Below the pieces are notes generated by a model. That model worked only from the letters and a program-made list of their open reading frames with translations. It did no database searches and was not told the DNA's origin. DNA of 64,000 nt from an uncultured Phycisphaerales bacterium (GTDB lineage Bacteria; Planctomycetota; Phycisphaerae; Tepidisphaerales; Tepidisphaeraceae): the NCBI GenBank assembly GCA_963758525.1, contig CAVWVQ010000001.1, positions 192,001-256,000 of the forward strand. The letters are read 5' to 3'. Positions within the stretch are counted from its first letter, which is position 1. Every line of letters begins with the position of its first letter. Positions 3,761 to 53,608 of the stretch are shown piece after piece. The position numbers and the translations under genes are program-made.

Positions 3761-5907
3761 GCTCCCCCCGAATGCTCCGCCGGCGCGACGGCGGGGGGGC
3801 TTCCCTTATCGGCCTTGGGCGCCTGCGGCTCGTTGTTCTGCGCCTTTCCCGGATGCGATGCGCCAACGGTCACTTTCGGGCTGGTGTCAATCGTGATGGC
3901 AAACTCCGCCGACCCGCTCATCACGTCGTCGGTTGGAATCACCTTCACCGTCGAGCTGACAAATGCCGTCGTCGCGCTGCGGCCCGCGCCCAGCAGAATC
4001 TGTCTGCGCGATGATGGAAGCCGCTGCAGCGCCGTGCGCCCGATCGCCACTCCGTCCGGCTGCCGTACCAAACGCACGTAGAGCGCGTTGTCGCGGATTT
4101 TCGCAAGGTCGTGCAGCACCGAGAAAACGTCATCCACCTTCTCAGCGGTGAAGCGGAACGGCTGCGACTGCTGCTCATCCTGCACGTATCGCTGCGCGTC
4201 GGAGACGATGAGCCGATACGTTCCCTTCGGCAGATCGCGCGGCAATTCCATCTCGATCGGCAACGTTCCCTCATTGCCCCAGAACGGCTTGTAGGTCGCG
4301 AAGCCCTTGAGCATTTCCCCGGGGCGATATTTCTCCTTTGGAACGGTGATGTCGATCAATTGAGCCGCGTGCGGCGTCCCGCTGATGCGGATGGTGCCGC
4401 TCACACGCCGGATCAGAACGCGCTGAAACGGATTGTCCGCCGCCGTCACGATCGGCGTGCCGACTTCCCCAAACAGATCGGCCGCGGCGGCGTTTGCCGC
4501 GCGGTCCTGAATCCGCAGCGTCTGTCCATTGGCAAAGTCCATGACCAGGTCGTAATCGACCGTGTTGTATTGCGGCAGATCGTTGGGTCCCGTCAGTGCC
4601 GAGCCAAACGCCACGCCCGCCACCATCGGCGTCAGTTTCGGATGCAGCGCGCTTTGGAAGTGATACGACCGCGTCGGCGAGCCATCGGCATAAGAAACCA
4701 CATAGTCCATCGGCACCATCGGAGGCACCGCGCCCACGTGCCCGGCAACGCCCACCGACATATCCGTGGTCAGTGTCCCGCAACCTTTTGACATGGAGCC
4801 GAGCTTGAAGCTTGTCTGCAGGTTCGCGATCACCCCCTGAATTTCCCCGCCGCCCATCGGCAGGGCGATCGATCCTTCATTATTGAACGGATGCCCGAAC
4901 CCGAACATCCGGTCGCCCAGCACTTCGGTCACCGTGCCGATGGCTGTCAGATCCGCATCTCCCGTGAGCAGGGGAACGGCCAGCACCGAGCCTGGCTGCA
5001 ACGGCAGACCGTTGCCCTGCGGCGACGATCCGCCGCCCGATTGAAGCATCGTCAGCCCCATCGACTTGAACGCCGGCGTCAGCTCGTCCATCAGCCGCGT
5101 CGAGATTCCTGACGCCATCAGCGGGGTCGTCAACGGCCGCAGCCGCGGGAGCGATTCGCCATTGCCGGCAAGCGGTTCGTTGCCCGTCGATGCCTCATCG
5201 ACTCGCCCCAGGCCGGCCAGAAGATGATGCACCGATCGATATCGTGCCTGCATCATCAGCGCCACATTCGTCATCGACCATGCCGCCCGGCCCGCCGCCG
5301 GAGCATCATCGGTTTTAACCTGGCCGTCACCGGTTGCCGCGCTCTGCGAAGTCGTCGGCGACGGCTTCGCCCCCGGCAACGCCAGCATGTATTCGATCGG
5401 CTGGACGCCCGCCACCGGATCTTTCGTCAACGGCCACCCGTACGCGAATGCCCCGATCATCCGATCGCGACCCCGCGCGTCCCGCAGGTAAATCGGCGAG
5501 CCGCTCATCCCCGCGATGCTCCCCGCATGCTCCAGGAAATCTCCCTTGCAGCGAATCAGCACCACATCATCCTGCGGATTGAAATTTCGCAGGATCGAGA
5601 GCACTTCGATGTCAAACTTTTCGATCTTCGAGCCTTGAAACACGCTCAGCCCATACCCGGTCATCCCCGGGCGAACCTCTGAAATGCGCATGTGACGGCC
5701 CGGGTCAAACAGCGCCGGAGCGGGCGTCTGCTGCTCGATTTGCGCCTCGGCTCGCACCGATCTGCACAGACTCAACCCCAGCACCAATGCCACCGTCGCA
5801 AGACACACAGACTTCATGTGCACCTCAATCAAATCCAGCGCCGAGGCTCGCTCCCAAACGGACCATACCATCGTAGTGGCCCAGCCATTTGCCAGCAATG
5901 GCGGCAA
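3751..5907 (-). CDS. SpoIVB-like peptidase S55 domain protein (probable start ATG 5817)
   Basis: GMTGYGLSVFQG, AGMSGSPIY, AIGTVTEV...FGFGHPF motifs and a signal peptide. Confidence 0.85.
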   Translation of the reverse strand: MPPLLANGWATTMVWSVWERASALDLIEVHMKSVCLATVALVLGLSLCRSVRAEAQIEQQTPAPALFDPGRHMRISEVRPGMTGYGLSVFQGSKIEKFDIEVLSILRNFNPQDDVVLIRCKGDFLEHAGSIAGMSGSPIYLRDARGRDRMIGAFAYGWPLTKDPVAGVQPIEYMLALPGAKPSPTTSQSAATGDGQVKTDDAPAAGRAAWSMTNVALMMQARYRSVHHLLAGLGRVDEASTGNEPLAGNGESLPRLRPLTTPLMASGISTRLMDELTPAFKSMGLTMLQSGGGSSPQGNGLPLQPGSVLAVPLLTGDADLTAIGTVTEVLGDRMFGFGHPFNNEGSIALPMGGGEIQGVIANLQTSFKLGSMSKGCGTLTTDMSVGVAGHVGAVPPMVPMDYVVSYADGSPTRSYHFQSALHPKLTPMVAGVAFGSALTGPNDLPQYNTVDYDLVMDFANGQTLRIQDRAANAAAADLFGEVGTPIVTAADNPFQRVLIRRVSGTIRISGTPHAAQLIDITVPKEKYRPGEMLKGFATYKPFWGNEGTLPIEMELPRDLPKGTYRLIVSDAQRYVQDEQQSQPFRFTAEKVDDVFSVLHDLAKIRDNALYVRLVRQPDGVAIGRTALQRLPSSRRQILLGAGRSATTAFVSSTVKVIPTDDVMSGSAEFAITIDTSPKVTVGASHPGKAQNNEPQAPKADKGSPPAVAPAEHSGGAAN

Positions 5908-37387: not shown

Positions 37388-37726
37388 TCACCCGGCTCTG
37401 CGCTGGTTCATGACTAGTCGCAACCCTTCCGCCACCATTTGGGACCGCTTGAGTTTGTGCCGTTTCGCGAACGAGTCCGCCTCCTTGAGGAGGGTGCGTT
37501 CGATGCTGACGGACATCACCTTCGCGCCGGCGCCGACGGTGGGGCGTCCGCGCACCTTCCGCTGGAAGCGCTTCCATATCTTGCGTTCCGCGGCATTGAG
37601 GGGACGGGACTCCGAAAGCGGAACTTCTCCGCGCTCAAATATCGCCAGCTCCGCAGCTTTCTCGGCCGGGGAAAGTGCCAGGAATTTTTCCACCGCATCC
37701 GGCTCGCGCCGCTTTGCCTTTTTCAT
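37388..37726 (-). CDS. Putative antitoxin with C-terminal RHH-like domain
   Basis: RGRPTVGAG...VSIERTLLKEADSFAKRHKLKRSQMVAEGL; lies downstream of a BrnT-like gene. Confidence 0.6.
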   Translation of the reverse strand: MKKAKRREPDAVEKFLALSPAEKAAELAIFERGEVPLSESRPLNAAERKIWKRFQRKVRGRPTVGAGAKVMSVSIERTLLKEADSFAKRHKLKRSQMVAEGLRLVMNQRRAG

Positions 37727-37749
37727 AAGAACGCCTTTCTTCGTTTGCA

Positions 37750-37998
37750 TCATCGCCGCCGCCGGCCGGTCATTGGCATCGCGTGAATGATGTAGTACAC
37801 CCCGTCGCGATCGATCACGTATGCCACCTGGACCCATCGATCGCCGACGCCACGGCCGATGACTTGCCATTTGTCATCCCTGACGCGCCGGGGATACGGG
37901 CGCGCGCCGCCCGCACGACGCGCTCCGCCTCCCAGACCGAACGCCGTGCCTGGCCGCATGTTCAAATTCCAGTCGTTCCAGCGGAATTCCGCTTTCAT
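37750..37998 (-). CDS. BrnT-like toxin (possibly with internal indels)
   Basis: EFRWNDWN...VIGRG...VAY...YYIIHAMPMT. Confidence 0.6.
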   Translation of the reverse strand: MKAEFRWNDWNLNMRPGTAFGLGGGARRAGGARPYPRRVRDDKWQVIGRGVGDRWVQVAYVIDRDGVYYIIHAMPMTGRRRR

Positions 37999-38095
37999 CT
38001 GATTTAATTATGGAGTTAATCCGCGTCGATGCAAACTTATTCCGACGGAAACTATTATTCTTGCGTCCACTCCGATTTTCGCATATATAATAATC

Positions 38096-38359
38096 GTGCG
38101 GCAAGCGGATGACTTCCGGTGGAACGATGCGAACTTGGAGCATGCGACGAAGCACGGCTGCACGATCGCTGAGATCGAGCATCTGCTGCTGAATATTCCG
38201 CACGGATTTCCGCGCAGGATTGATCGCCACAAACGGCTGGTCATAGGACGCGGGCAGGGCGGACGACTCATCAGGGTGATCTACCTGCTCGATCCGCCGC
38301 CCGATGCTGCTTACTACGTCCTCCACGCCATGCCGCTGACATCGCGGCGCAGGCGGTGA
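38096..38359 (+). CDS. BrnT-like toxin
   Basis: FRWNDANLEHATKHG...VIGRGQGGRLIRVIY...YVLHAMPLT. Confidence 0.7.
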   Translation: MRQADDFRWNDANLEHATKHGCTIAEIEHLLLNIPHGFPRRIDRHKRLVIGRGQGGRLIRVIYLLDPPPDAAYYVLHAMPLTSRRRR

Positions 38360-38394
38360 GGATCAACACCCGGCAATGCCGGGGGAAAGGCCAC

Positions 38395-38742
38395 ATGGCT
38401 CGCAAAACTGAAAAGGAACCAGCGACAGGCCGTGACTTCGAAGCCCTGCCGCGCGCCCAACGGGAGCGGATCATGGCGGAGCTTGACGCGGCCTCGACAG
38501 AGGAGCTGCTGGCCCGCTCCAAGCCGCTCACTCGCTCGCAAGCCGCCGCCGAGCGACGTCTGTGCGATGCGGTGAACGATCGCCGGGGACGCGGACGCCC
38601 AAAAGTCGGCAAGGGATCAAAACTTGTGGCTGTCACGCTTGAACAAGGTCTGCTGGAGGAAGTCGACCGTTTCGCCAAGCGGAAGAAGATGAAGCGTTCA
38701 GAGATGATTGCCAGCGGACTGAGACTCCTGATGGCTTCATAG
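38395..38742 (+). CDS. Putative antitoxin with RHH-like domain
   Basis: Paralog of 37388-37726 (RGRPKVGKG...FAKRKKMKRSEMIASGL). Confidence 0.65.
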   Translation: MARKTEKEPATGRDFEALPRAQRERIMAELDAASTEELLARSKPLTRSQAAAERRLCDAVNDRRGRGRPKVGKGSKLVAVTLEQGLLEEVDRFAKRKKMKRSEMIASGLRLLMAS

Positions 38743-38854: not shown

Positions 38855-38882
38855 ACTTAACATAACATGGATTATCGGACGT
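38855..38882 (-). other. dif site (XerC/XerD), left prophage junction
   Basis: Minus strand ACGTCCGATAA-TCCATG-TTATGTTAAGT has the 11-6-11 layout; E. coli dif is GGTGCGCATAA-TGTATA-TTATGTTAAAT. Confidence 0.88.
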
Positions 38883-39203: not shown

Positions 39204-39371
39204 GTGCCCGCCACAAAACCATTCAACCTCGACGACGCCTACAAACTCCAAAACATCTGGCGCGGCATGCGCGTCCTATGGCTCCCAATCACATTCGCTT
39301 TTTTCGTCGGCATGGGGATAACCATCCTCAAGGCACTTTTCACGCGACGCCCTCCAAGACGCCGACGATAA
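39204..39371 (+). CDS. 55-aa single-TM peptide with basic tail
   Basis: Own translation: MPATKPFNLDDAYKLQNIWRGMRVLWLPITFAFFVGMGITILKALFTRRPPRRRR. Confidence 0.45.
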   Translation: MPATKPFNLDDAYKLQNIWRGMRVLWLPITFAFFVGMGITILKALFTRRPPRRRR

Positions 39372-39444: not shown

Positions 39445-40443
39445 TCACCACAATTTTGCCCCCTTGCTGGCCAGCACCAACCGCCACGCCCGCAACCCCA
39501 CCAGAAACCCCAACCCCAACGCGCTCGACTCCCCATACAAATGCAGCGCGCCCTCCAACCCCGCCAGCTGCGACGACCACGGCGACAACTCCACCGCAGC
39601 GCGCGAGAGGCGCGGAGCCACTCCTCCCCCGGCCGAACCCCACGGCGCGATCGGCCAAGACGCCACGTCGTCCGCCACCACCGCCCCGCCCACGAACCGG
39701 TTATCGGACGCTCGACCACCCGCCGAATACATCCCGTTCAGGATGTTGGTTCCCCAACCCTCGCAATCATTTCCGGTTATCAAAACATTGCTCTCGCCCA
39801 TGATTTCAATAGCGGTCTTGGCCCACAACGACACGCCCGCATCCGGCCCGGTCTGCAATAACACATTATTGCTTATCGTAATGTTGCTGCCGAACCCCAC
39901 CCACTCGGACCCGTCCCAATATCCGCCCGTCGCGCACGAAATCCCGATGTGCGAATCAACCCCGGCCCCGTCAACATGCGGCAACCAAGAGGACATCGAA
40001 TTACCGTCGACCAAAAGATGCGTCATACCCTTTTGTAGCTCAATCCCGATCCGCGTCGCATGCGTGATCACGTTCCCTTGCACCGTCAGCCCGTCACAAG
40101 CGGCCGACAGATGCACCGGCTCGTAAACCGCATCAAACGTGTTGCCCACGATCCGGCCACCGTCCCCCGGGTAGCCATAAATACCGCTACCACTCACCCC
40201 CGAAAACGTGCAACCAACGATCGACCAGTCACGCGCCCCCGCCCCTATAAAGATTGCGTCCCCATCAATGCCACTGAAGCTCGACCCCTCCACCACCACC
40301 CCGACCGCCCCATCCGCAATCACGACCTGCACACCTGGTCCGGTCACACCCCGCAACGAATCGCCCGACCCCAGCCGCACAACCGACCCACACGCACCCG
40401 AGGCCCACAACAGCAGAAACACGCAACACCGCCGCTGAGTCAC
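39445..40443 (-). CDS. Secreted right-handed beta-helix protein with C-terminal minor-coat-like module
   Basis: Signal-like N-terminus; repeats such as IVGNTF, TVQGNVI, VDGNSM, NITISNN, ITGND; tail similar to 47560-47697. Confidence 0.7.
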   Translation of the reverse strand: MTQRRCCVFLLLWASGACGSVVRLGSGDSLRGVTGPGVQVVIADGAVGVVVEGSSFSGIDGDAIFIGAGARDWSIVGCTFSGVSGSGIYGYPGDGGRIVGNTFDAVYEPVHLSAACDGLTVQGNVITHATRIGIELQKGMTHLLVDGNSMSSWLPHVDGAGVDSHIGISCATGGYWDGSEWVGFGSNITISNNVLLQTGPDAGVSLWAKTAIEIMGESNVLITGNDCEGWGTNILNGMYSAGGRASDNRFVGGAVVADDVASWPIAPWGSAGGGVAPRLSRAAVELSPWSSQLAGLEGALHLYGESSALGLGFLVGLRAWRLVLASKGAKLW

Positions 40444-40504
40444 ACCCAGGTCAGTCACCCCAATTCCAAGCAATCCACGCATTTCTCGTCGCACTCTTTT
40501 CCCT

Positions 40505-40690
40505 CCCTGACACGGCGACCCCCCAATGACCCCATCAAACCGTCCAGCAGCTGCATGAAAGCGCCGCACGTCCCCGCCCCACAGAAGATCGGGCCCACGA
40601 ACGACCGCGAACCCCGCCGCCTCAAACCCCCGATCCATCAGGCCAATGCCCGGAAACAACGAAAGCACGACGCCGGCACACTCACACATC
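40505..40690 (-). pseudogene. N-terminal fragment of a C5 cytosine DNA methyltransferase
   Basis: Motif I VLSLFPGIG...GFEAAGF and motif IV GGSPCQ; no ENV or later motifs. Confidence 0.7.
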
Positions 40691-41052: not shown

Positions 41053-42080
41053 CTAAATCGGCAGCCGATCGCAGTGACGCACAGGAGCCGGAGCCGGCTC
41101 ATCTGGCAGAAGCTTGCGATCGCCGTCACTCATCCTCGAATGCCCCCTTGCAAGCAGATTCTGGAGAAACATTTCCGCCCAGGCGTCACCCTGTTCTCTC
41201 TTATGCCACTCATGAACCATCGCCAGACGCCGACTTACTGTTCTCTCCAACCATCGCTGCATCGCCTCAAGCTCCTCCACCTCCTTCGGGTAGACCTTCA
41301 CCGCCGCCACGCCGAAGCCACCCCCGGATCGTCTCCCAAAACGGAGCCCGCCGGCGGCGCTCGACATGCAACGCGCGATCCTGATAGAAGTCGATCGACC
41401 CAGCCACCAACTCCCCAATCCGCCGAACCAACTCAGCGCCGGTGTACACGCCAAGCAGCTTGTCCCACACCGCGTCGGCATGAGCCTTAAAAAACCGTGC
41501 CTCATACCTCACCGCGTTAATCTCGCCATCCGATTCCGCCGCCTTGTCATACACGCACACCACCCGCCCGCCTTCACGCTCACCGAAATAAATCGTGTTC
41601 CCCTGCCGCCCCCCCTTGCCATCCCCCTCCTGGTGATGGCGGTGGCGACCCGGCCCAAACAATCGCGGCTCTGCATACCGCTCCCACAAGTCCGCCACCT
41701 CAATCACGCGCTCGAAGTCATCGAACGCACAATCCACCCGCGTCGCCTTGACCCCATGCACCCCACGCAGCCGCAACAGAAACCCCGCCATCGTCTCCGC
41801 GTCCAGCTGCGCAAGCCTGGCCGGTCACGTTCAGACAGACATCCGGCCTCGAGAACTCATCAGGGCCGCCATCCTCACACGGCGAGAAATTCAGCGTCAC
41901 ACCCGCCGTAAAGGCGTAGTGGCACCGATACCCCCGCACAACGCCGAACCGTTCCTCATGCGGCCACCCGAACACCTCTTCCACGATGTGCAGCAACGCC
42001 CCAATCTCCGTTGCCGGCGTCACAAACGTCAGCCAATCCAAACGAAGGACAGAACGACGTACACCACTTGGCGCATCCAT
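41053..42080 (-). CDS. Rolling-circle replication initiator, Rep_trans family (two frameshifts)
   Basis: RLDWLTFV, TRVDCAFDD, GNTIYFG, VYDKAAE, RYEARF spread over three frames. Confidence 0.85.
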
Positions 42081-43196: not shown

Positions 43197-43433
43197 TCAC
43201 ACGTCCCCCGCCGCCGAGTCACAGCCTGGCGAGTCACACATCCCCACCACCGGCGACGGCCCACCCCCGTCCCGCACCGCACGCCACACCCGCTGCGCAT
43301 CCGCCCCGTGCGCGAACTCCACGCGCCCGCCCACGAAGGAAATCACCAAGCGGTCCGAACCCTCCCACCGCACCGACGCCACGTAGCGCAGCACAATCAC
43401 CGTACGACCCAAGACCAACCGTTCGTCCGTCAC
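43197..43433 (-). CDS. 78-aa phage hypothetical protein
   Basis: GTG start overlapping the secretin stop codon. Confidence 0.45.
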   Translation of the reverse strand: MTDERLVLGRTVIVLRYVASVRWEGSDRLVISFVGGRVEFAHGADAQRVWRAVRDGGGPSPVVGMCDSPGCDSAAGDV

Positions 43434-44902
43434 CGTCCACCTGCCTTTGCTACCGCTATCGCCGCCTCTGCCGCCGACAACCGATCCTGATCGGCCCGGT
43501 ACACGGCTTCCCACTCACGGCGAATCGCCAACACGTCACGCCCGACCTCCTCGACCGATCTATCCACCGGAGCCGGCCCCCGCCCAGGCACGTCTACCGG
43601 CCCCACCGGCTTGAGCGGCACGTCCGGCGACCCGCTCGGCCTAGGGGCCTCGCTCCCGCCGTCCGTCCGCTCCACCGGCCCGCCTGTACCCCGGCCCACG
43701 CGCGTCACGCTGGCCCACAGCTGGACGACCCGGCCGGAGCTCTCCGCGTCCGCCAACGATTGCAGCCCCAGCGTATGACTCAGCGTCCACGTGCGGCGCT
43801 CCACCTCGCCCACCAGCGCCGTCCCACCAACGTCGATCGGGGCCGAGGCGGCGAACTGGAAACCGGTCGTCGTCGGAACCCCCTGATCAGACAGCGCCAG
43901 CAACGACGTGCTGGAATAATCCACCGTCAACGCAGCACGATCCGTCCCGGCCGGACGAACAGTCAACGTCACGTCGAGGCCCACCCGATAAGGAACCAAC
44001 GTGCTTTGCGTTTGCGTCCCCTGATCATTCGTCGCCGACTGCGGCAACAGGTACGTCGTCCCATCCGACAACTTCCCCGGCACGCCGCCCGCCAGCACCA
44101 TCAGCGGCGACACCAGCGCCCGCACGTGATTGTTCTCATGGCTCGCCACAATCATGGCCTGCAACATCGCGCTTGCCACCGTCGTGACTCCACCGGTCGC
44201 GACATGGCCCAACACGCCCTGGAGCGTCACAGTCGCCGAACCGTCCCACCCCACCTTTTGCAGAAACTCGCGCGACACGTCGAACGCGTAGACGTGAATC
44301 AGCCACGCATCCGCCGGCGCCGCATCAAGCTGCGCCAACACATCGCCTATCTTCTGGTCGATTTCCACGCTGTCACCCACGACTACGATTCCGTCCTCGG
44401 TCACCGAAAGCCGCCCGGCGTCCGACAGATAGACCCGCAACAGCGCATCCAACTTATCCGGCGCGACCCGAGCACACCGACCAACGAGAACCGCGCGATC
44501 CTGCGGCCGCAATGAGCCGATAAACCACAACGACCCCAGGCGAGTCACATCCGCCCCAACGCGCCTCGCGACCGCCGCCAGCACGTCGCCCACCGGCACG
44601 CCCTGCACCCGAATATTCACTGTTGACTTATCCAACTTGGCCTCACAGATCGCCGACACGCCATCATCCACCGCCAGCCGCCCGAGGAACTGCTCGAGCG
44701 TTATGCCCTCCGCTGACAACGAAACGCGCGCCCCCGTGTCCCGTGTCTGCAGCGCCGACGCCACCGGCAGCGCTGCCGAGTACGCCGCCCGGAACTCCCG
44801 CTCCGCCCGCAACTCCGGCGCTTCTTGGCACCCAATCGCGACCGAGAGCCACATGCCGCACCACCCCGCGCCGATCGAACGTAGCAACGCCTTCAACATC
44901 AT
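43430..44902 (-). CDS. pIV/GspD-like secretin
   Basis: Lipoprotein-like signal, N0/N3-like region, secretin-like C domain (GKLSDG...VGLDVTLTVRP...GGTALVG); follows zot. Confidence 0.75.
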   Translation of the reverse strand: MMLKALLRSIGAGWCGMWLSVAIGCQEAPELRAEREFRAAYSAALPVASALQTRDTGARVSLSAEGITLEQFLGRLAVDDGVSAICEAKLDKSTVNIRVQGVPVGDVLAAVARRVGADVTRLGSLWFIGSLRPQDRAVLVGRCARVAPDKLDALLRVYLSDAGRLSVTEDGIVVVGDSVEIDQKIGDVLAQLDAAPADAWLIHVYAFDVSREFLQKVGWDGSATVTLQGVLGHVATGGVTTVASAMLQAMIVASHENNHVRALVSPLMVLAGGVPGKLSDGTTYLLPQSATNDQGTQTQSTLVPYRVGLDVTLTVRPAGTDRAALTVDYSSTSLLALSDQGVPTTTGFQFAASAPIDVGGTALVGEVERRTWTLSHTLGLQSLADAESSGRVVQLWASVTRVGRGTGGPVERTDGGSEAPRPSGSPDVPLKPVGPVDVPGRGPAPVDRSVEEVGRDVLAIRREWEAVYRADQDRLSAAEAAIAVAKAGGR

Positions 44903-46100
44903 TCACCACCTCAAGCCGCCAACCCAACGCGGCACCACTCTCCACAGTTTCGCCCACACGCAACACGGCCCCATCCTCAAACACGACCTCTTCCCGACGC
45001 ACGAGCACCAGGCGAACAACCCCCACGCGATCGTCGACCAACGCCGGCCGACCAGCCGCTGCCCCCCCCCCCACACCACCTCCACCCCGATATCGCCCCC
45101 CGCCGAGCTCAGTCACACGATGCCCACCCACGCCCTGGTCGGTCACCCCCGCAGGCCCAGCGCCTTGTGACGCCGGCAACGCGGCCCGCATATTCTTCGC
45201 AGCAAACCCCCCGACCCCCGACACGATGCCGTGCACGAGGCACCCGCCGCCGCCACAGACGAAAAACAACGGCAACCACAAAAGCCAAGACCGCATCAAC
45301 AACGCATAAAAGTGCTTCGACACGAACCAATTGATCAGGCCCGGCCAAGACCGCCGCTCATACTCCCTCTTGCGCGGCCCGCCCGCCTGCCCGCCCCCCG
45401 ACTCCGGCTTGGAGTAGCTGTCGTAGAGCTCAAAGTACCGAGGCAGAAGGTAGTGAAACTTTTCGCGCTCGCGGATGAAGCGCGCATTAACTTCGCGCCC
45501 CAGTGTCTCCCAAACCGCCGCAAGATATGTCCCGGTAAGTTTTGCGCGTAATTCATACCAATCTCCGAGCTCGATGTGAAAAAACGGGTCGGGGCGCTCA
45601 TCACTATGAACGAGCTCACGACGGAGCCCGCTCTCATTCTTGATAACGCGCGCCACCTTCATCTCGTTCTGACTTAGAAATTCTATAGTCGCCCCCTGAT
45701 GCCGAATCGTCCCCAACCATTTCTGCCACTGCGCCAGATATGACATCTTCGCCCCGACCCCCGCATACTCATGGATTTCGTCAATGGCGATATGGGTATC
45801 GGCCAACGATTGCCCCTTGAAGAAATCCCACGGGCCGCGCTGCCCCAGCCGCCACGCCGCCAACTCCTCCTCCGGGAAACGATGCAGCCGCGCCTCATAC
45901 TCATCAGCATCGCCATTCTTATTCTTCGACCACTGCGCCGCCAAGACCGCCAACGTGCGCGGCTCATACGGAAAGTTGCTCCAATGATGCAAGTTCGTTT
46001 CCGGCAGCAACTCCTCCGAGAGGAATTTCGCACACCGCAGCAAACTCTTGCCGCTGCCGGCCCGCCCCACTGTGAATTGAACCGACGTCCTGACGGCCAT
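44664..46100 (-). CDS. Zot/pI morphogenesis ATPase (3' end probably frameshifted at the G-run near 45065; real stop near 44903)
   Basis: Walker A GRAGSGKS, Walker B IAIDEIH, RHQG...SQ, LYDSY, then a TM segment. Confidence 0.88.
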   Translation of the reverse strand: MAVRTSVQFTVGRAGSGKSLLRCAKFLSEELLPETNLHHWSNFPYEPRTLAVLAAQWSKNKNGDADEYEARLHRFPEEELAAWRLGQRGPWDFFKGQSLADTHIAIDEIHEYAGVGAKMSYLAQWQKWLGTIRHQGATIEFLSQNEMKVARVIKNESGLRRELVHSDERPDPFFHIELGDWYELRAKLTGTYLAAVWETLGREVNARFIREREKFHYLLPRYFELYDSYSKPESGGGQAGGPRKREYERRSWPGLINWFVSKHFYALLMRSWLLWLPLFFVCGGGGCLVHGIVSGVGGFAAKNMRAALPASQGAGPAGVTDQGVGGHRVTELGGGRYRGGGGVGGGAAAGRPALVDDRVGVVRLVLVRREEVVFEDGAVLRVGETVESGAALGWRLEVVNDVEGVATFDRRGVVRHVALGRDWVPRSAGVAGGAGVPGGVLGSAAGGVGAADTGHGGARFVVSGGHNARAVPRAAGGG

Positions 46101-46226
46101 ACTACTCCCAATCCTGCAACGCAACCCACAACAGCGCGGCCATCCCCCACCCGCAAAGCGCCAGCTTCACCAACAAGTCGACCACCACATCGGACCGCAT
46201 CGCGACTCCCTGGACAGTCACGCCCC

Positions 46227-46490
46227 TCAGAACAGCCGCACGACCAGCTTGACGCAAAAGTACACAATGAACGACACCAGAAACCCCGCGAGGAGCTCAC
46301 AAAGCGTATCCAGTGGAAACCACAGATTGAGCAGCGAGCAGTACGTCGCAAGCGTCGCCAGCGTTGCGTTAGTCGGGATCGTCGGCAGCGGCGCGACCGC
46401 CAGTTGCAGCAACGTGTACCCGAGCTCGCACGCCCAATTCTCGAGGTACCCCAAGAAGTTCAGCAGCGCCTGCAACACGTAATAAATCAT
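46227..46490 (-). CDS. pVI-like minor coat protein
   Basis: 87 aa, hydrophobic, located between pIII and pI. Confidence 0.7.
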   Translation of the reverse strand: MIYYVLQALLNFLGYLENWACELGYTLLQLAVAPLPTIPTNATLATLATYCSLLNLWFPLDTLCELLAGFLVSFIVYFCVKLVVRLF

Positions 46491-46493
46491 GGG

Positions 46494-47521
46494 TCACCAG
46501 TCCTTCAACGTCTTCCACAACAGCCAACAAAACGACATGACCAAAAAGAATGTCGCCACCCCACGAACCGTGCCCTGCGCCCCCGACACAGCCGAACCAT
46601 AAGGCGTACCGTTCAGCGTGAACGACCCCGACTGCGGGTTAACGTCGATGCGGATTTCCGACCCGCCAAGCACACTCGGCAGATGCCAATCGACCGGCTC
46701 CAACGTCATCTGTTCAGAGAGATTCGCCGAACTGAACTGCGCGGCGAATGGAAACTTCGTGGTCAGCAACGTCTCAATCTCCCCCATGCAACTGGGCGCC
46801 GTCGTCGCGGGTTGCGTTGTCGGAGAAGGGCTGGTCGTCGTCGACGTGTCAGACGCCCCGGTAGTCGGGGCCAGCCCCGTAATCGTGATCTGCGCGTACC
46901 CCGGCGGCACCGAGTGCGACGCCCACGCATTTTGCCCTCCATTCAACGCGGTGAACAACGGCGAGAATGCCATCGTCACGTAGTAATTCGTCGCCCCGCC
47001 ACCCGACGGATACGACACGGGATCTTCCCCAAAATCCCCATTCAGCTTCGTGGCCGACGAATACGGCTCGCGCCAGTAGAACGTGTTGACATCGGTCCCC
47101 TGATCCCCAGCGTACACCTGGACCCCACCAATCCAGACCTGATACCCCGTCGCGTCGAGCTCGATCTTAAAATCCACCTCGAGCCGATCCCCGTTCGGAA
47201 CGTACGCCGACCCGCTCCAGCGCCACAAATCCAAAGCAAACGTCCCCTCATAGACGCCATTACTCCCGCTAGACCCCAACCCGCACTGGACCGTCAGCAA
47301 GTTTTGAAATGAAGGGAACCCCGAATTAACTTGGCCCGGCGGCAAGAACACGTCCGGGAACCCCGCCCGTGGGTATTGCGTCAGCGCCCCGACAGGTCCC
47401 CGTAAAAGAGGCTGCTCCCGTATTGGTACGCTACCGTCGCTTCCGCCTGAAAATCCACCGGATTGCCAGCCGCCCCACCCGCCACGACCGACAAGGCCAG
47501 CGCCACGAAGGCAACCCGCAT
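46494..47521 (-). CDS. pIII-like attachment protein (frameshift near 47385)
   Basis: Signal peptide MRVAFVALALSVVAGGAAG, Thr/Pro linker, KFPF motif, C-terminal TM anchor. Confidence 0.7.
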
Positions 47522-47559
47522 CGCACCCAGCTCAGTCACACCACCGCCCATCGCACGCC

Positions 47560-47697
47560 TCAAAAGAATTTGGACATCTTGGAGAGCATCACCAAGCGCC
47601 ACAGCTGCAACCCGACGAGGAAACCGACGCCGAGCGCTATCGCCTCACCATATAGATTGATGGCACCCATCAACTGGCTGAACTGGTCATCCGTCAT
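47560..47697 (-). CDS. 45-aa pVII/pIX-like minor coat protein
   Basis: MTDDQFSQLMGAINLYGEAIALGVGFLVGLQLWRLVMLSKMSKFF: acidic N-terminus, TM, basic C-terminus, within the structural cluster. Confidence 0.6.
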   Translation of the reverse strand: MTDDQFSQLMGAINLYGEAIALGVGFLVGLQLWRLVMLSKMSKFF

Positions 47698-47831: not shown

Positions 47832-47872
47832 AAAAGGGGAGCGGAGCGCCCGCAACGCAGGCGCCCCGCTCA
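47832..47872 (-). terminator. Rho-independent terminator after the major coat gene
   Basis: gagcggggcgcctgcgttgcgggcgctccgctc followed by cccTTTT. Confidence 0.55.
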
Positions 47873-47887
47873 GGCGGAAAACCGGGA

Positions 47888-48130
47888 TCAGCCACCCTTG
47901 ACGCCGCGACGCGCCCACTTCCAGAACGCGGCGAAGATCACCAGCGCGATGAACACGCCGAACAAGACACCGAGAATGGTGCCCATGTTCGCCGCAGCCG
48001 CGGTGGTCAAGGAGCCAGCGTCAACGCCGAGATCAAACGGCGTGGAATCCGCGCGGGCCGTGGCCGACAGACCCACAAGAGCAGTGCACATCAACAGTGC
48101 ACCGACGATACGAGAACGGAACCGAGACAT
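47888..48130 (-). CDS. pVIII-like major coat protein
   Basis: gaggag RBS, signal peptide ending ARA, 53-aa mature protein with acidic N-terminus, TM and basic tail WKWARRGVKGG. Confidence 0.8.
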   Translation of the reverse strand: MSRFRSRIVGALLMCTALVGLSATARADSTPFDLGVDAGSLTTAAAANMGTILGVLFGVFIALVIFAAFWKWARRGVKGG

Positions 48131-48201: not shown

Positions 48202-49319
48202 TCAGTCACCACCCACCATCCGACCTATCAACGCTTCCGCTTTTCCACGACACTCCACGCAGCGCGAGTTCCCCGCAATCACAGGAGCCCCACATTCCCA
48301 ACACGTAGGCGACTCCACCTCCTCCGCCTCACTCACAGCCCCCCCCGGCGAATTGTCCCCCAACTCGGAGCCCATCGACTCCAACGACTCTCCACCCGAC
48401 ACCTCCCCATACACATGATGCTCGACCGCCCCCACCACCGCGCCTTCGTTCGAGTCAATCACCATCCCCCCATCTTCGCCCGCCATCTGCCGCACGCACC
48501 GCCGACAAAAACCGCCGCCGTCACCATCGCGCTCAGCACGACTCAACCGAACCCCGCACCCGTCACACCGCCACGCATCAACCCCCGGCCCCTCCTCCAC
48601 CGCAGGCTCCGTCCCGCCTCCCACCGACCGCTTAGACCAAATCCAAAACGCGCCGAGGACCAAGAGCACAAGAACACACCGAAGATCAAACCCAGGTGAC
48701 CCCCCATCGCCGACGCCACGCTCGCCACCTTAGCCCCCACCGAACCCGAACCCGCCTTCCCCAAACCCGCCGAATCAAAGGTATAAGTGCCCGCCCCATC
48801 CCCCCCCCCACCGCCACCAGCCCCGCCACCCGAACCGCCACCACCCGAGCCACCACCGCCCGATCCGCCACCTGAACCACCGCCAGCACCGAAACCACTC
48901 CCAGGCGACGACCACAGGACCCCCGAGCCCGAAACCGTCCCATCCGTCCCCAGCGAAACGACATCGTCCACACCCGACGTCAGCACATCCGCCCCACTCA
49001 CCGCGTCCGCTTCTGCCGCAGCTAACGCCGACGAGTCACCCGCGAACCCACCGTCAAACACCACCCCACTCTCTGAATCGAAGCCCACACTCTCACGGGT
49101 CTCACCGGCGGAAACCGTATCGTAATAAAACGGCGAACCATCCACACTCACCAACTCAGTCACCCAAAACCCCTCATCATTAACGCCACCAACCAGGTTC
49201 GGAACCGAATCATCAGAAAAACTAATCGTCCGAGACTGCGCCCGACACACCCCCGGCAACACTAGAAATGCCAGCAGCCAAACCACAAGCACGGGTAGCG
49301 CACGACCAGTTGACCGCAC
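48202..49319 (-). CDS. Signal peptide + acidic domain + Gly/Ser linker + major-coat-like module + two Zn ribbons (one frameshift near 48670)
   Basis: Joining ORFs 48543-49565 and 48202-48669 restores MGGHLGLIFGVF-x-VLLVLGAFWIWSKRSVGG; four CxxC motifs follow. Confidence 0.55.
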
Positions 49320-49561
49320 CACACCACCCGCACCACCCACAGAACCAAGGTTACCGCAACAATCACGATCCGAGCACATACACACCACCTTTCGACCGCG
49401 CACACTGACGACACGACCAAGCCTCGCATCGCGCCACCCCACACACACACGCGACCCACGACACGAGGCACCATGCGACTCCACCAAAACCAGACCACCA
49501 CGACTCACAGTCGCCCCAACCCAACAACCGCAGCTATCGCACAACGCCACCAACGAACACA

Positions 49562-49720
49562 TCACCCACCCCCCACAGCCCGAGCCGCATGCCTGGCCAG
49601 CGCCCCAAACACATTCAGCGCCACCTGAATCGACACCATCAAACCCACCACAAGCGCCAGCGTCGCCACGAGCTCACCCAACACTTCCAACGGCACAAAA
49701 CCCGGATCAGGAATAGTCAT
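49562..49720 (-). CDS. 52-aa single-TM protein (minor-coat-like)
   Basis: Own translation MTIPDPGFVPLEVLGELVATLALVVGLMVSIQVALNVFGALARHAARAVGGG. Confidence 0.55.
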   Translation of the reverse strand: MTIPDPGFVPLEVLGELVATLALVVGLMVSIQVALNVFGALARHAARAVGGG

Positions 49721-49741
49721 CACTTGCCCTTAGAAAACGCC

Positions 49742-50050
49742 TTATCCACCCAACCCCAACCCCGCGCCGCCTGAATCAGCAGGTGGATCGTCAGGCCGCA
49801 CCCGAATCCCACCCCCACCCCGATCCGCAGGAGCTCCCACGCCGTCGCGACCTCGATCGTTGGCATTGTCGTAGGCATCGCGCCGAACCTTTCTCACCCC
49901 CAACAACAACCCCAAAACCGACGCGAGCATCATCGCCAACACGAACCGCCCGAACGCACAGGACGCACACGCCAGCACCATGACAACTCCCAAAACACCC
50001 AGCGGGGTCGCTAGACCCCGCCGAGCGGACAGAAACACACCGACCAGCAA
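49742..50050 (-). CDS. Small hydrophobic phage protein (boundaries uncertain)
   Basis: Two TM-like segments, position after pV. Confidence 0.4.
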   Translation of the reverse strand: MLVGVFLSARRGLATPLGVLGVVMVLACASCAFGRFVLAMMLASVLGLLLGVRKVRRDAYDNANDRGRDGVGAPADRGGGGIRVRPDDPPADSGGAGLGLGG

Positions 50051-50431
50051 CTACCTCGCAGCCTGGGCAGTCACAGGCCCAGCACCATTTCCGGGAGCCT
50101 TCACCGCCGCAGGCATGCCGCGCTTGCGGATGCCCATCGCCGTCAGGTCACATTCCGCCAACAGCGCTTCCGGCTCAAAAGACACCACACGCAAAACCGT
50201 CGTGCGGCCGTACGTCTCCTCCTCCACGTCCACGTTGACCACGATCGGACCACCGGCAGCGATCGTCCCCGCAAAATCGGTCGCGATCGCCTTCGTCGTC
50301 CGATACGTCTTGGCCTCATAGCCAAAGGCGCCCGTCTTCTTGGTCACACTGCCCATGAGCGCCCACAACTCGCTGTAGTCACGCCCGTCATCTGCCACAC
50401 GCGGGTTCGCACCCGTAACAATCAGACGCAT
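50051..50431 (-). CDS. pV-like ssDNA-binding protein
   Basis: 126 aa, beta-rich OB-like pattern (GRDYSEL...GAFGYEAKTY...VVNVDVE), first gene of the structural operon. Confidence 0.6.
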   Translation of the reverse strand: MRLIVTGANPRVADDGRDYSELWALMGSVTKKTGAFGYEAKTYRTTKAIATDFAGTIAAGGPIVVNVDVEEETYGRTTVLRVVSFEPEALLAECDLTAMGIRKRGMPAAVKAPGNGAGPVTAQAAR

Positions 50432-50583: not shown

Positions 50584-50611
50584 CAATTGCATAACATGGA
50601 TTATCGGACGT
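50584..50611 (-). other. dif-like site with degenerate XerD arm, right prophage junction
   Basis: ACGTCCGATAA-TCCATG-TTATGCAATTG. Confidence 0.85.
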
Positions 50612-51952: not shown

Positions 51953-53283
51953 TTAGTCGGTAAGCCGGTCCATGAGAAATCCCCTGATCTGGTCAATGCC
52001 GATCCGCTGCTGGCGCATCGAGTCACGTTCCCGGAGAGTGACTGTCTGATCTTCCGCAGTCTGGCCGTCCACAGTGATGCAAAAGGGCGTGCCGGCCTCG
52101 TCCTGACGGCGGTATCGCCGCCCCACCGCGCCCTTCTCATCGTAGAAAACGGGCCAGTGCTTTTGCAGATCGTGATAGATCGCCATCGCCCGCTCCGGCA
52201 TTCCCTCTTTTTTCACCAGCGGGAAGATCGCCGCTTTCATCGGCGCGAGGCGCGGCTTGAATCGCAGCACGGTTCGCATCTCCCCTTCGACCTGCTCCTC
52301 GGCATAGGCCTCGCACAAAAACGCCAGCGTCGCGCGCGTGGCCCCCGCCGCCGGCTCGATGACATGCGGAACGAATCGCTCCTTGGTTTCGTCGTCGAAG
52401 TAACTGAGGTCCTTGCCGCTGAATTTGATGTGCTGCTGCAGGTCGTAGTCGCCGCGGTGAGCGATGCCCTCCAGTTCGCCCCATCCCCAGGGGAATTTGT
52501 ATTCGATGTCGCTGGTGCCGCTGGAATAAAACGCCAGCTCGTTCTTTTCGTGCTCGCGGAGGCGCAGGTTTTCGCCGGCCAATCCCAATTGCTGATACCA
52601 GGCGAAACGCCGGTCGCGCCACTGGCGATAGGTGTCCTGGCTGTCCTGCGGCTTGCAGAAATATTCGATCTCCATCAACTCGAATTCGCGCGAGCGGAAG
52701 ATGAACTGCTTGGGCGTGATCTCGTTGCGGAAGGCCTTGCCGATCTGCGCGATGCCGAACGGCAGTTTCACGCGCGTCGAATCGCAGACGTTTCTGAAGT
52801 TGACGAACATCCCCTGCGCCGTCTCGGGCGCAGATAGACCGTCGCGGCATTCTCTTCCACCGGGCCGACAAACGTTTTGAACATCAAGTTGAACTTGCGG
52901 GCGTCGGTTAGCTGGCAGTCCGCGAACTGCCCGGGCGGCTTCGAGGGTTTTCGCGGGCAGGCGCTCTCGGCGATCTGATCGGCACGAAACCGCGCCTGGC
53001 AAGTCTTGCAATCCACCAGCGGATCGGTGAACGCCGCTTCGTGCCCGCTGGCCTGCCAGACGGTGCGGTTCATCAGAATAGCTGAGTCGAGGCCGACGAC
53101 ATCGTCGCGGGTGGTGACGTTGTCATGCCACCATGCGTTCTTGACGTTGCGCAGCAATTCGACGCCCAGGGGGCCGTAATCCCAGGTTCCGGTGAGTCCG
53201 CCGTAGATTTCGGAGCCGGGGTAGACAAAGCCGCGGCGTTTGCAAAGGGAGACGAGTTTGTCCAGCGTTCCAGCTTCAGCCAT
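51953..53283 (-). CDS. glyQS: Glycine--tRNA ligase, alpha2 type (frameshift near 52830)
   Basis: LCKRRGF, WDYGPLG, YLRPETAQG (split by the shift), [20 protein letters not shown]. Confidence 0.93.
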
Positions 53284-53608
53284 GATGAACGACCTCCGAC
53301 CCCGCGACAGCCGCGGTTGCCGCTCCGCAGCGCCTCGCGTGGCAAAATCCCGGGAGGACACCCTTCATTCCTCCCCTGGTGCGCCCGGGGAGGATTGAGG
53401 TCGGGACAGACGGTGCGGATCGCAAGATATGGCTCCGTTAGCCGTTTAGAGCCGGTTTCATTACCCCCTCTCCCGGATTGCCGGCAGAGGGAGTAGGTCG
53501 CTCGAAGTTCTGAAACGTCCTCTTGGCCCGCAGCAGGCCCAAAGGCGTATTTCACGATTTCAGCGCGCTCCGTGCGCGTCGCGGCTAAACAGGGATCTGA
53601 AGCTGCCT

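Follow-up and report, generated by a model that had tools for sequence, protein, structure and literature searches.

A candidate minor coat protein that may naturally display a beta-helix passenger in a planctomycete inovirus prophage

Can a filamentous phage carry a folded domain on a coat protein other than pIII? To our knowledge, the folded domains of these phages are thought to be carried only on pIII, and the question is raised by an open reading frame (ORF) in a 64,000-nucleotide stretch of a contig from an uncultured Phycisphaerales bacterium (hereafter the window, whose coordinates are used throughout). The ORF encodes a signal-like peptide, a beta-helix and, at its C-terminus, a second version of a 45-aa protein that the same element also encodes on its own. 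An initial annotation had taken the 45-aa protein for a virion tip protein and the longer ORF for a fusion copy that displays the beta-helix. The comparisons reported here indicate that the fusion is real, conserved and more general than that annotation could see. The proposition that the 45-aa protein anchors passengers naturally as a minor coat protein, and is kept here as wild type plus fusion, strikes us as somewhat better than even, and display of the passenger on the virion is likely, going by the sequences.

Both genes lie in an 11.75-kb element with a strong strand skew (Table 1), bounded by a 22-nt direct repeat at positions 38861 and 50590, 11.7 kb apart. In its layout the repeat resembles what we take to be a dif site, and no further copy occurs in the genome at four or fewer mismatches. 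The features by which inoviruses are recognized are present: a rolling-circle Rep and a secretin within 5–15 kb of DNA between attachment repeats, a pI/Zot-like ATPase (phrog_197, E 1.6e-7), and a short major coat protein with a single transmembrane (TM) segment, made as an 80-aa precursor. The sole PDB match of the major-coat family profile at E ≤ 10 is the coat protein of the inovirus PH75 (E 0.015). By this content the element is an inovirus prophage (Tubulavirales).

Table 1. Features of the prophage in order of position along the window.
Feature	Positions	Strand	Remarks
Attachment-site repeat, dif-like	38861..38882	.	
Fusion gene: signal-like peptide, beta-helix passenger, linker, 45-aa-gene paralog	39445..40458	-	preferred start GTG 40458
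41-aa tail, paralog of the 45-aa gene: hydrophobic segment, basic/aromatic C-terminus	39445..39570	-	
26-aa linker	39571..39648	-	14/26 identical in P0002
Right-handed parallel beta-helix passenger	39649..40386	-	40-53% identical to 7 host paralogs
Signal-peptide-like leader, 24 aa, weak	40387..40458	-	starts in 16-nt motif
Truncated DNA-cytosine-methyltransferase stub	40455..40689	-	in frame with fusion in this assembly
Rep_trans replication initiator, three frames (two breaks)	41053..42080	-	PF02486 E 3e-18
pIV-like secretin	43430..44902	-	phrog_1012 E 1.1e-6
pI/Zot-like assembly ATPase	44664..46100	-	phrog_197 E 1.6e-7
pVI-like gene	46227..46490	-	homologs in same slot
pIII-like gene (signal peptide, C-terminal TM), two frames, break near 47390	46494..47539	-	position and anatomy only
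Stand-alone 45-aa single-TM protein, candidate minor coat, directly upstream of gene III	47560..47697	-	clade core gene
Strong hairpin, terminator-like, 3' of major coat gene	47839..47871	-	
Major coat protein precursor (pVIII-like, signal peptide)	47888..48130	-	
Second coat fusion	48202..49565	-	frame break near 48670
53-aa weak major-coat paralog	49562..49723	-	E 0.007
52-aa single-TM gene in the canonical pVII/pIX slot before the major coat gene; belongs to a second small family that is also conserved	49720..49878	-	
Probable ssDNA-binding protein	50051..50431	-	inferred from position
Attachment-site repeat, dif-like	50590..50611	.	

The second coat fusion (48202–49565) runs from a leader-like segment through an acidic passenger and a long Gly/Ser linker to a major-coat paralog and a zinc-ribbon extension; the paralog is recognized by its profile at E 4e-6 when the break is read through with X. 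An intact gene of similar build is present at 4568–5329 of a related locus, L017, and major-coat paralogs, two to three per genome, are common in the clade (L014, L017, L039, L041, L042, L043 and L048). Two small hydrophobic ORFs of the prophage, at 46102–46221 (minus strand) and 39204–39371 (plus strand), are without a Pfam match. Outside the left attachment repeat, at 37388–38742, lie two divergent small gene pairs, each consisting of a weak DUF4258-like gene and a ribbon-helix-helix-like gene and with more copies elsewhere in the genome, which are presumably toxin-antitoxin pairs of the BrnT/BrnA type.

The tail of the fusion aligns without gaps to the stand-alone protein encoded at 47560–47697, and the 24 identities in 41 residues given by the initial annotation were confirmed on re-counting (81 of 126 nucleotides are identical). 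In 100,000 shuffles the maximum was 14 identities, and the match reached E 1.8e-10 in a tblastn search against the whole genome. The window tail keeps the W-x-L..K..aromatic ending of the 45-aa family and is less hydrophobic than the stand-alone protein (1.45 vs 1.91). Among the 41 codon pairs there are 12 identical ones, 12 with silent differences and 17 with a changed residue, and the duplication is thus an old one. When 118,635 six-frame segments of the genome were ranked by a profile built from other phages only, the stand-alone gene led at E 1e-5, followed by the fusion at E 0.065 and, as the next best, a segment at E 2.3; the tail is thus a phage module without a host counterpart.

The same build recurs outside the window. 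P0002, one of seven homologs found, comes from another contig, is 72% identical to the window fusion (211 of 295 residues) across passenger, linker and tail, and has the same passenger-linker-tail junction in frame. P0011 is a stand-alone 45-aa protein, identical to the window copy at 42 of 45 positions (93%), and the longest contig is 10,914 bp for P0002 as well as for P0011; we infer a second phage carrying both the fusion and the stand-alone copy. A HMMER search over 1.84 billion representatives gave six matches, namely P0011, P0002, P0013, P0014, P0012 and P0015, and P0012 and P0015 were dropped as repeat proteins. The window fusion was not found in IMG/VR, and a JGI scan returned only two paralog loci that did not look like phage (L012 and L013).

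The fusion gene itself had been placed at 39445..40443. Its open frame is real, but it reaches upstream to 40881, through the methyltransferase stub that the database call (P0001, 414 aa) takes in, and the start at 40443 was replaced by the GTG at 40458. This codon overlaps the stop of a shifted upstream frame and sits in a 16-nt motif that is also found at the likely start of gene III, and codon use in the 17-codon stretch between stub and passenger is a poor match to that of the phage (score -0.92; 8 of 17 end in A); for these reasons GTG 40458 is the preferred, inferred start. The motif has three exact copies genome-wide, all in the prophage (40458, 48209 and 47539, the last being the likely gene III start), and copies with two to three mismatches at 50074, 46221, 45146, 45116 and 43237, all on the coding strand and mostly at gene junctions. 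There are seven copies at two or fewer mismatches against about 0.02 expected, a ratio to be read in the knowledge that the motif was derived from the copies then counted. It is possible that the motif serves as a translational-coupling cassette, an operator or a recombination site.

The signal-like peptide noted earlier is present but weak, with an 11-residue core of mean hydropathy 2.1, and P0002 as called begins without a signal peptide. The leader may be a copy of that of pIII: the DNA motif is common to the two, and no protein alignment was found between them. The reading of GSAGGG as a glycine linker did not hold up: the sequence is not conserved, being GSVGGV in P0002, and it aligns with the end of the host domain.

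That domain, the passenger, is matched by Pfam Beta_helix (E 5e-12). In an AlphaFold model of the fusion (pLDDT 82 overall, below 50 for most of the linker and tail) the beta-helix extends over about 260 residues; the fold proposed from the sequence therefore stands, but its extent of some 280 residues was an overestimate. The same genome has seven chromosomal paralogs of the passenger, whose match stops at the linker and several of which begin with export-type leaders. At E 1e-25, 4 of 141 genomes in the order have the family, with strong matches confined to this genus. A midpoint-rooted tree of 14 rows, from which two of the seven host paralogs were omitted, joins both phage copies in a single branch (100/98); this branch and the five remaining host paralogs all fall within an 11-row group (100/100). 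With the root at a midpoint, this topology only suggests a transfer of the passenger from host to phage. The third codon positions of the passenger are phage-type (G 47%, C 25%), against 51–59% C in the host paralogs, and it has thus been on the phage for a long time.

Several residues are invariant in 14 of 14 rows (in model numbering His93, Arg113, Glu117, Gln119, His147, Ser151, Cys152 and Glu195), and in the sequence register these residues recur at like positions of successive repeats, an arrangement such as a binding or catalytic groove would have. Structure searches returned alginate epimerases, lyases, PfbA and tailspikes, tied at Z 19–25 and 9–19% identity; rows so nearly tied at such identity allow a fold assignment only. 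Family matches consisted of generic Beta_helix/NosD and an 83-aa stretch of phrog_2234, and the ESM Atlas gave only generic beta-helix clusters. The passenger is likely a sugar-active domain that host genes also encode. One host paralog (G000:C3:735104-735874) is embedded in a 1615-aa protein that looks, in our reading, like a GspK-like type II secretion pseudopilin, and a 1707-aa frame in G001 contains a similar match.

How widespread is the 45-aa gene? Searches with the ATPase found related inoviruses in 1 of 140 family genomes, 4 of 400 from the phylum, 6 of 400 from the class (one of the six weak), 5 GTDB loci and 6 IMG/VR loci. Twenty loci were examined; L047 duplicates L044, and L040 and L045 are without the region, leaving 17. 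By the family profile, 16 of the 17 have exactly one family member directly upstream of gene III, and L048 has a small hydrophobic ORF in that slot that the profile missed. Among the 16, ten are in the profile and six were picked up independently at E 4e-5 or better; three more came from an earlier profile built without them, and L029 owes its assignment to position. Two copies occur only in the window. The sole copy is plain in most loci. It has a signal peptide alone in L029, L041 and L042, a signal peptide plus about 90 aa in L011 (tail E 2e-4), and a signal peptide, a LamG domain (PF13385, E 2.7e-14) and a Pro-Glu linker in L027 (tail E 2.9e-6 with a leave-one-out profile; the single-sequence fold was poor, pLDDT 43, and was not used). 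In L026 (9830-11455, minus strand), a single-contig genome, a homolog of the small gene continues in frame into the pIII leader, making one 542-aa ORF.

The signal-peptide and passenger forms in L029, L041, L042, L011 and L027 indicate that in nature export and folded passengers are compatible with the N-terminus of the module; of its three passengers, two have carbohydrate-type folds. On gene content, the 45-aa gene is a core structural-cluster gene of this clade. A word-index search with the 45-aa query found no longer proteins carrying it, and the family profile found three, all of architectures already seen. In INPHARED the 45-aa protein had one chance-level match (E 8), and a secretin-pattern scan of IMG/VR found nothing; members of the family in named complete genomes are L019 and P0022. 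One of the closest relatives is carried by L016, a Tepidisphaerales record. The region G751:C1:678000-716000 has two copies of a related inovirus, separated by about 19 kb and 93% identical over 4.2 kb, one of which is without the coat region. Compared by eye, L011, L014, L015, L017, L018 and L019 share the same structural module with apparently different replication proteins.

Under the reading that we prefer, a small core gene, likely a minor coat gene, would have been duplicated and the copy fused behind a host-type beta-helix. The leader would export the passenger to the periplasm, and the tail would insert with its N-terminus out and its C-terminus in, like all Ff coat proteins. Fusion and wild-type subunits could then co-assemble, placing one or a few beta-helices at a tip, with the wild type guaranteeing assembly as helper-supplied pVII and pIX do in phagemid display. 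The displayed domain may bind or cut extracellular glycan, be it host capsule, holdfast or biofilm matrix, and such action may help virions attach, reach the receptor or get free. For this PVC-associated clade as a whole, the case is evenly balanced that pIII is not the sole natural display anchor. The second would be a small coat gene, universal and placed before gene III, to which exported passengers were added repeatedly (a beta-helix, a LamG lectin and a 90-aa domain) and which was duplicated in one lineage. Tips there would be mosaics of wild-type and passenger subunits, nature's equivalent of two-gene pVII/pIX display, the displayed enzyme being host-derived and glycan-active.

Engineered phages provide the precedent. 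In PMC10175506, Ff coat proteins are described as residing first in the inner membrane with their basic C-termini toward the DNA, and this orientation is why pVII and pIX display is N-terminal only. Folded domains are displayed on both proteins with or without pelB, with helper-phage complementation (PMC3044770); N-terminal pVII/pIX display works, and display on pIX was raised by pelB (PMC10175506, PMC3044770). The geometry of the fusion matches such display. The initial annotation knew of no described natural example, and in the full-text literature, most subscription journals being outside the scope of the search, no natural small-coat fusion in an inovirus was found; the supplementary protein-family tables of PMC6813254 may contain these proteins. 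Polysaccharide-induced filamentous phages are reported from Lentisphaerae in PMC11361711, where the word "coat" does not occur.

The main result against the display reading is that the fused tail drifts faster than the stand-alone protein. Between the two phages, identity is 42/45 for the stand-alone protein, 177/236 for the passenger and 21/38 (55%) for the fused tail; at the last 12 tail residues it is 2/12, and P0002 is without the family ending. A subunit backed up by a wild type can drift, and it is possible that the altered C-terminus of P0002 reflects a sequencing indel. Weaker constraint on the tail, together with the loss of its conserved end in P0002, would also suit a lysogenic-conversion gene, in which the tail is only an inner-membrane anchor and the beta-helix acts from the periplasm on the host envelope (e.g., on a receptor or surface glycan) and is not packaged. 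The fusion gene does lie in an accessory region after rep, outside the structural cluster, and the coat-paralog fusions of the window and of L017 have long C-terminal extensions for which the capsid lumen would have no room. A generic membrane anchor, however, has no need of the family-specific residues that the window tail retains; the 45-aa gene seems to be universal, and L027 and L011 have it solely in the extended form; and the host already has its own seven paralogs of the passenger. We regard conversion as unlikely, though far from negligible.

Display also presupposes that the 45-aa protein belongs to the particle. It and most of its homologs are small, with one hydrophobic helix, an acidic N-terminus, a basic C-terminus and no leader, a leader being present in five homologs. 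The structural signature of inovirus coat genes given in PMC6813254 is 30–90 aa with one TM segment, and the 45-aa protein matches in size, single TM segment and charge. Minimal relatives have two small TM genes besides those for pVIII, pIII and pVI, which is the Ff count (pVII and pIX); one belongs to the 49720–49878 family before gVIII and the other to the 45-aa family. PHROG 7781, "minor coat protein", was matched weakly by 3 of 14 family members (best E 0.09), the family had no PDB match under E 0.5, and the 45-aa protein had no informative match in the ESM Atlas (0.81). HHalign of the family gave a probability of 10% over 8 columns against M13 pVII and 1% against pIX, and the other small family matched neither. 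The pVII/pIX slot, between gV and gVIII, is held by that other family; the 45-aa gene lies between gVIII and gIII, following a terminator after gVIII and abutting gene III, unlike M13. The 45-aa protein probably functions as a minor coat protein does and is assigned to neither pVII nor pIX; as to the tip, the count of small coat genes points to a pVII/pIX equivalent, and the gene position points to the pIII end. Of the proposed pairing of a wild-type tip protein with a displaying copy, it has been upheld that the fusion exists and recurs in another phage, that the 45-aa gene belongs to the core and that relatives have N-terminal extensions, but the HHalign scores and the slot do not bear out a pVII or pIX of the M13 kind.

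Constant adjacency to gene III, downstream of the post-gVIII terminator, the frame shared with the pIII leader in L026, and the lack of a significant match to known coat proteins could instead mark the family as a pIII-tied assembly or entry helper, with the fusion tethering its passenger at the assembly site, outside the particle. This we consider improbable: size, single TM segment and acidic-N/basic-C charge fit the inovirus structural signature (PMC6813254), and without the 45-aa gene minimal relatives would be left with a single small tip gene.

Neutral decay of a chimera, in a prophage that is itself defective, might be supposed from the frame breaks in rep (two), gene III (one) and the second coat fusion (one) and from the adjacent methyltransferase stub. 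The host glycyl-tRNA synthetase gene (window 52600–53400, minus strand) is frame-broken as well, however, and this break, with those in at least two host paralogs, makes the prophage indels probably assembly errors; moreover, two phages that differ by 28% both have the fusion as an open frame with its invariant residues intact, and decay is quite improbable. That an assembly error joined two separate genes, in an assembly prone to indels, is scarcely credible and largely refuted, because the independent P0002, from another contig, has the same in-frame junction and the actual frame at the window's passenger-tail junction has the best codon score of the three (0.56), which together indicate that the fusion is not an assembly artefact.

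If the display reading is true, it would explain the long "accessory" ORFs that are discarded by coat size filters (30–90 aa in PMC6813254). A second anchor with carbohydrate-type passengers would mean that chronic phages could bind or clear capsules and biofilm matrix, and evolution would have arrived at the same pairing of wild type and fusion as phagemid display. In a planctomycete inovirus clade that is itself undescribed, the anchor family would be a coat component either additional or relocated.

Inoviruses that use XerCD and dif, such as CTXphi, integrate between dif-like repeats. The prophage resembles CTXphi in lying between such repeats with no integrase among the ORFs scanned, and differs from it in its planctomycete host and in that no INPHARED phage matched its pI at E 0.01. 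The passenger is like HK620, CBA120 TSP2, AlgE4, the PL6/PL9 lyases and PfbA in fold (VIA-align Z 19–25 over 216–264 residues), whereas identity is 9–19%, no trimerization or head-binding domain of the tailspike kind was seen in it, and its closest sequence relatives are uncharacterized planctomycete chromosomal proteins. With inovirus pIII the fusion shares a natural layout of signal peptide, variable N-terminal domains, linker and, putatively, a virion anchor at the C-terminus; unlike pIII, it has as anchor a 41-aa segment paralogous to another gene, and the prophage has its own pIII-like gene besides. Compared with pVII and pIX of Ff (M13/fd/f1), the 45-aa protein is likewise a tiny single-helix membrane protein with an acidic N-terminus and a basic C-terminus, but family members have 45–57 aa rather than 32–33, the gene lies between gVIII and gIII, and HHalign puts a match to pVII and pIX at probabilities of no more than 10% and 1%. 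Finally, the arrangement as a whole resembles engineered pVII/pIX phagemid display as described in PMC10175506 and PMC3044770, with an N-terminal folded domain behind a leader and a wild-type copy alongside, and differs in being natural, with both copies on one genome.
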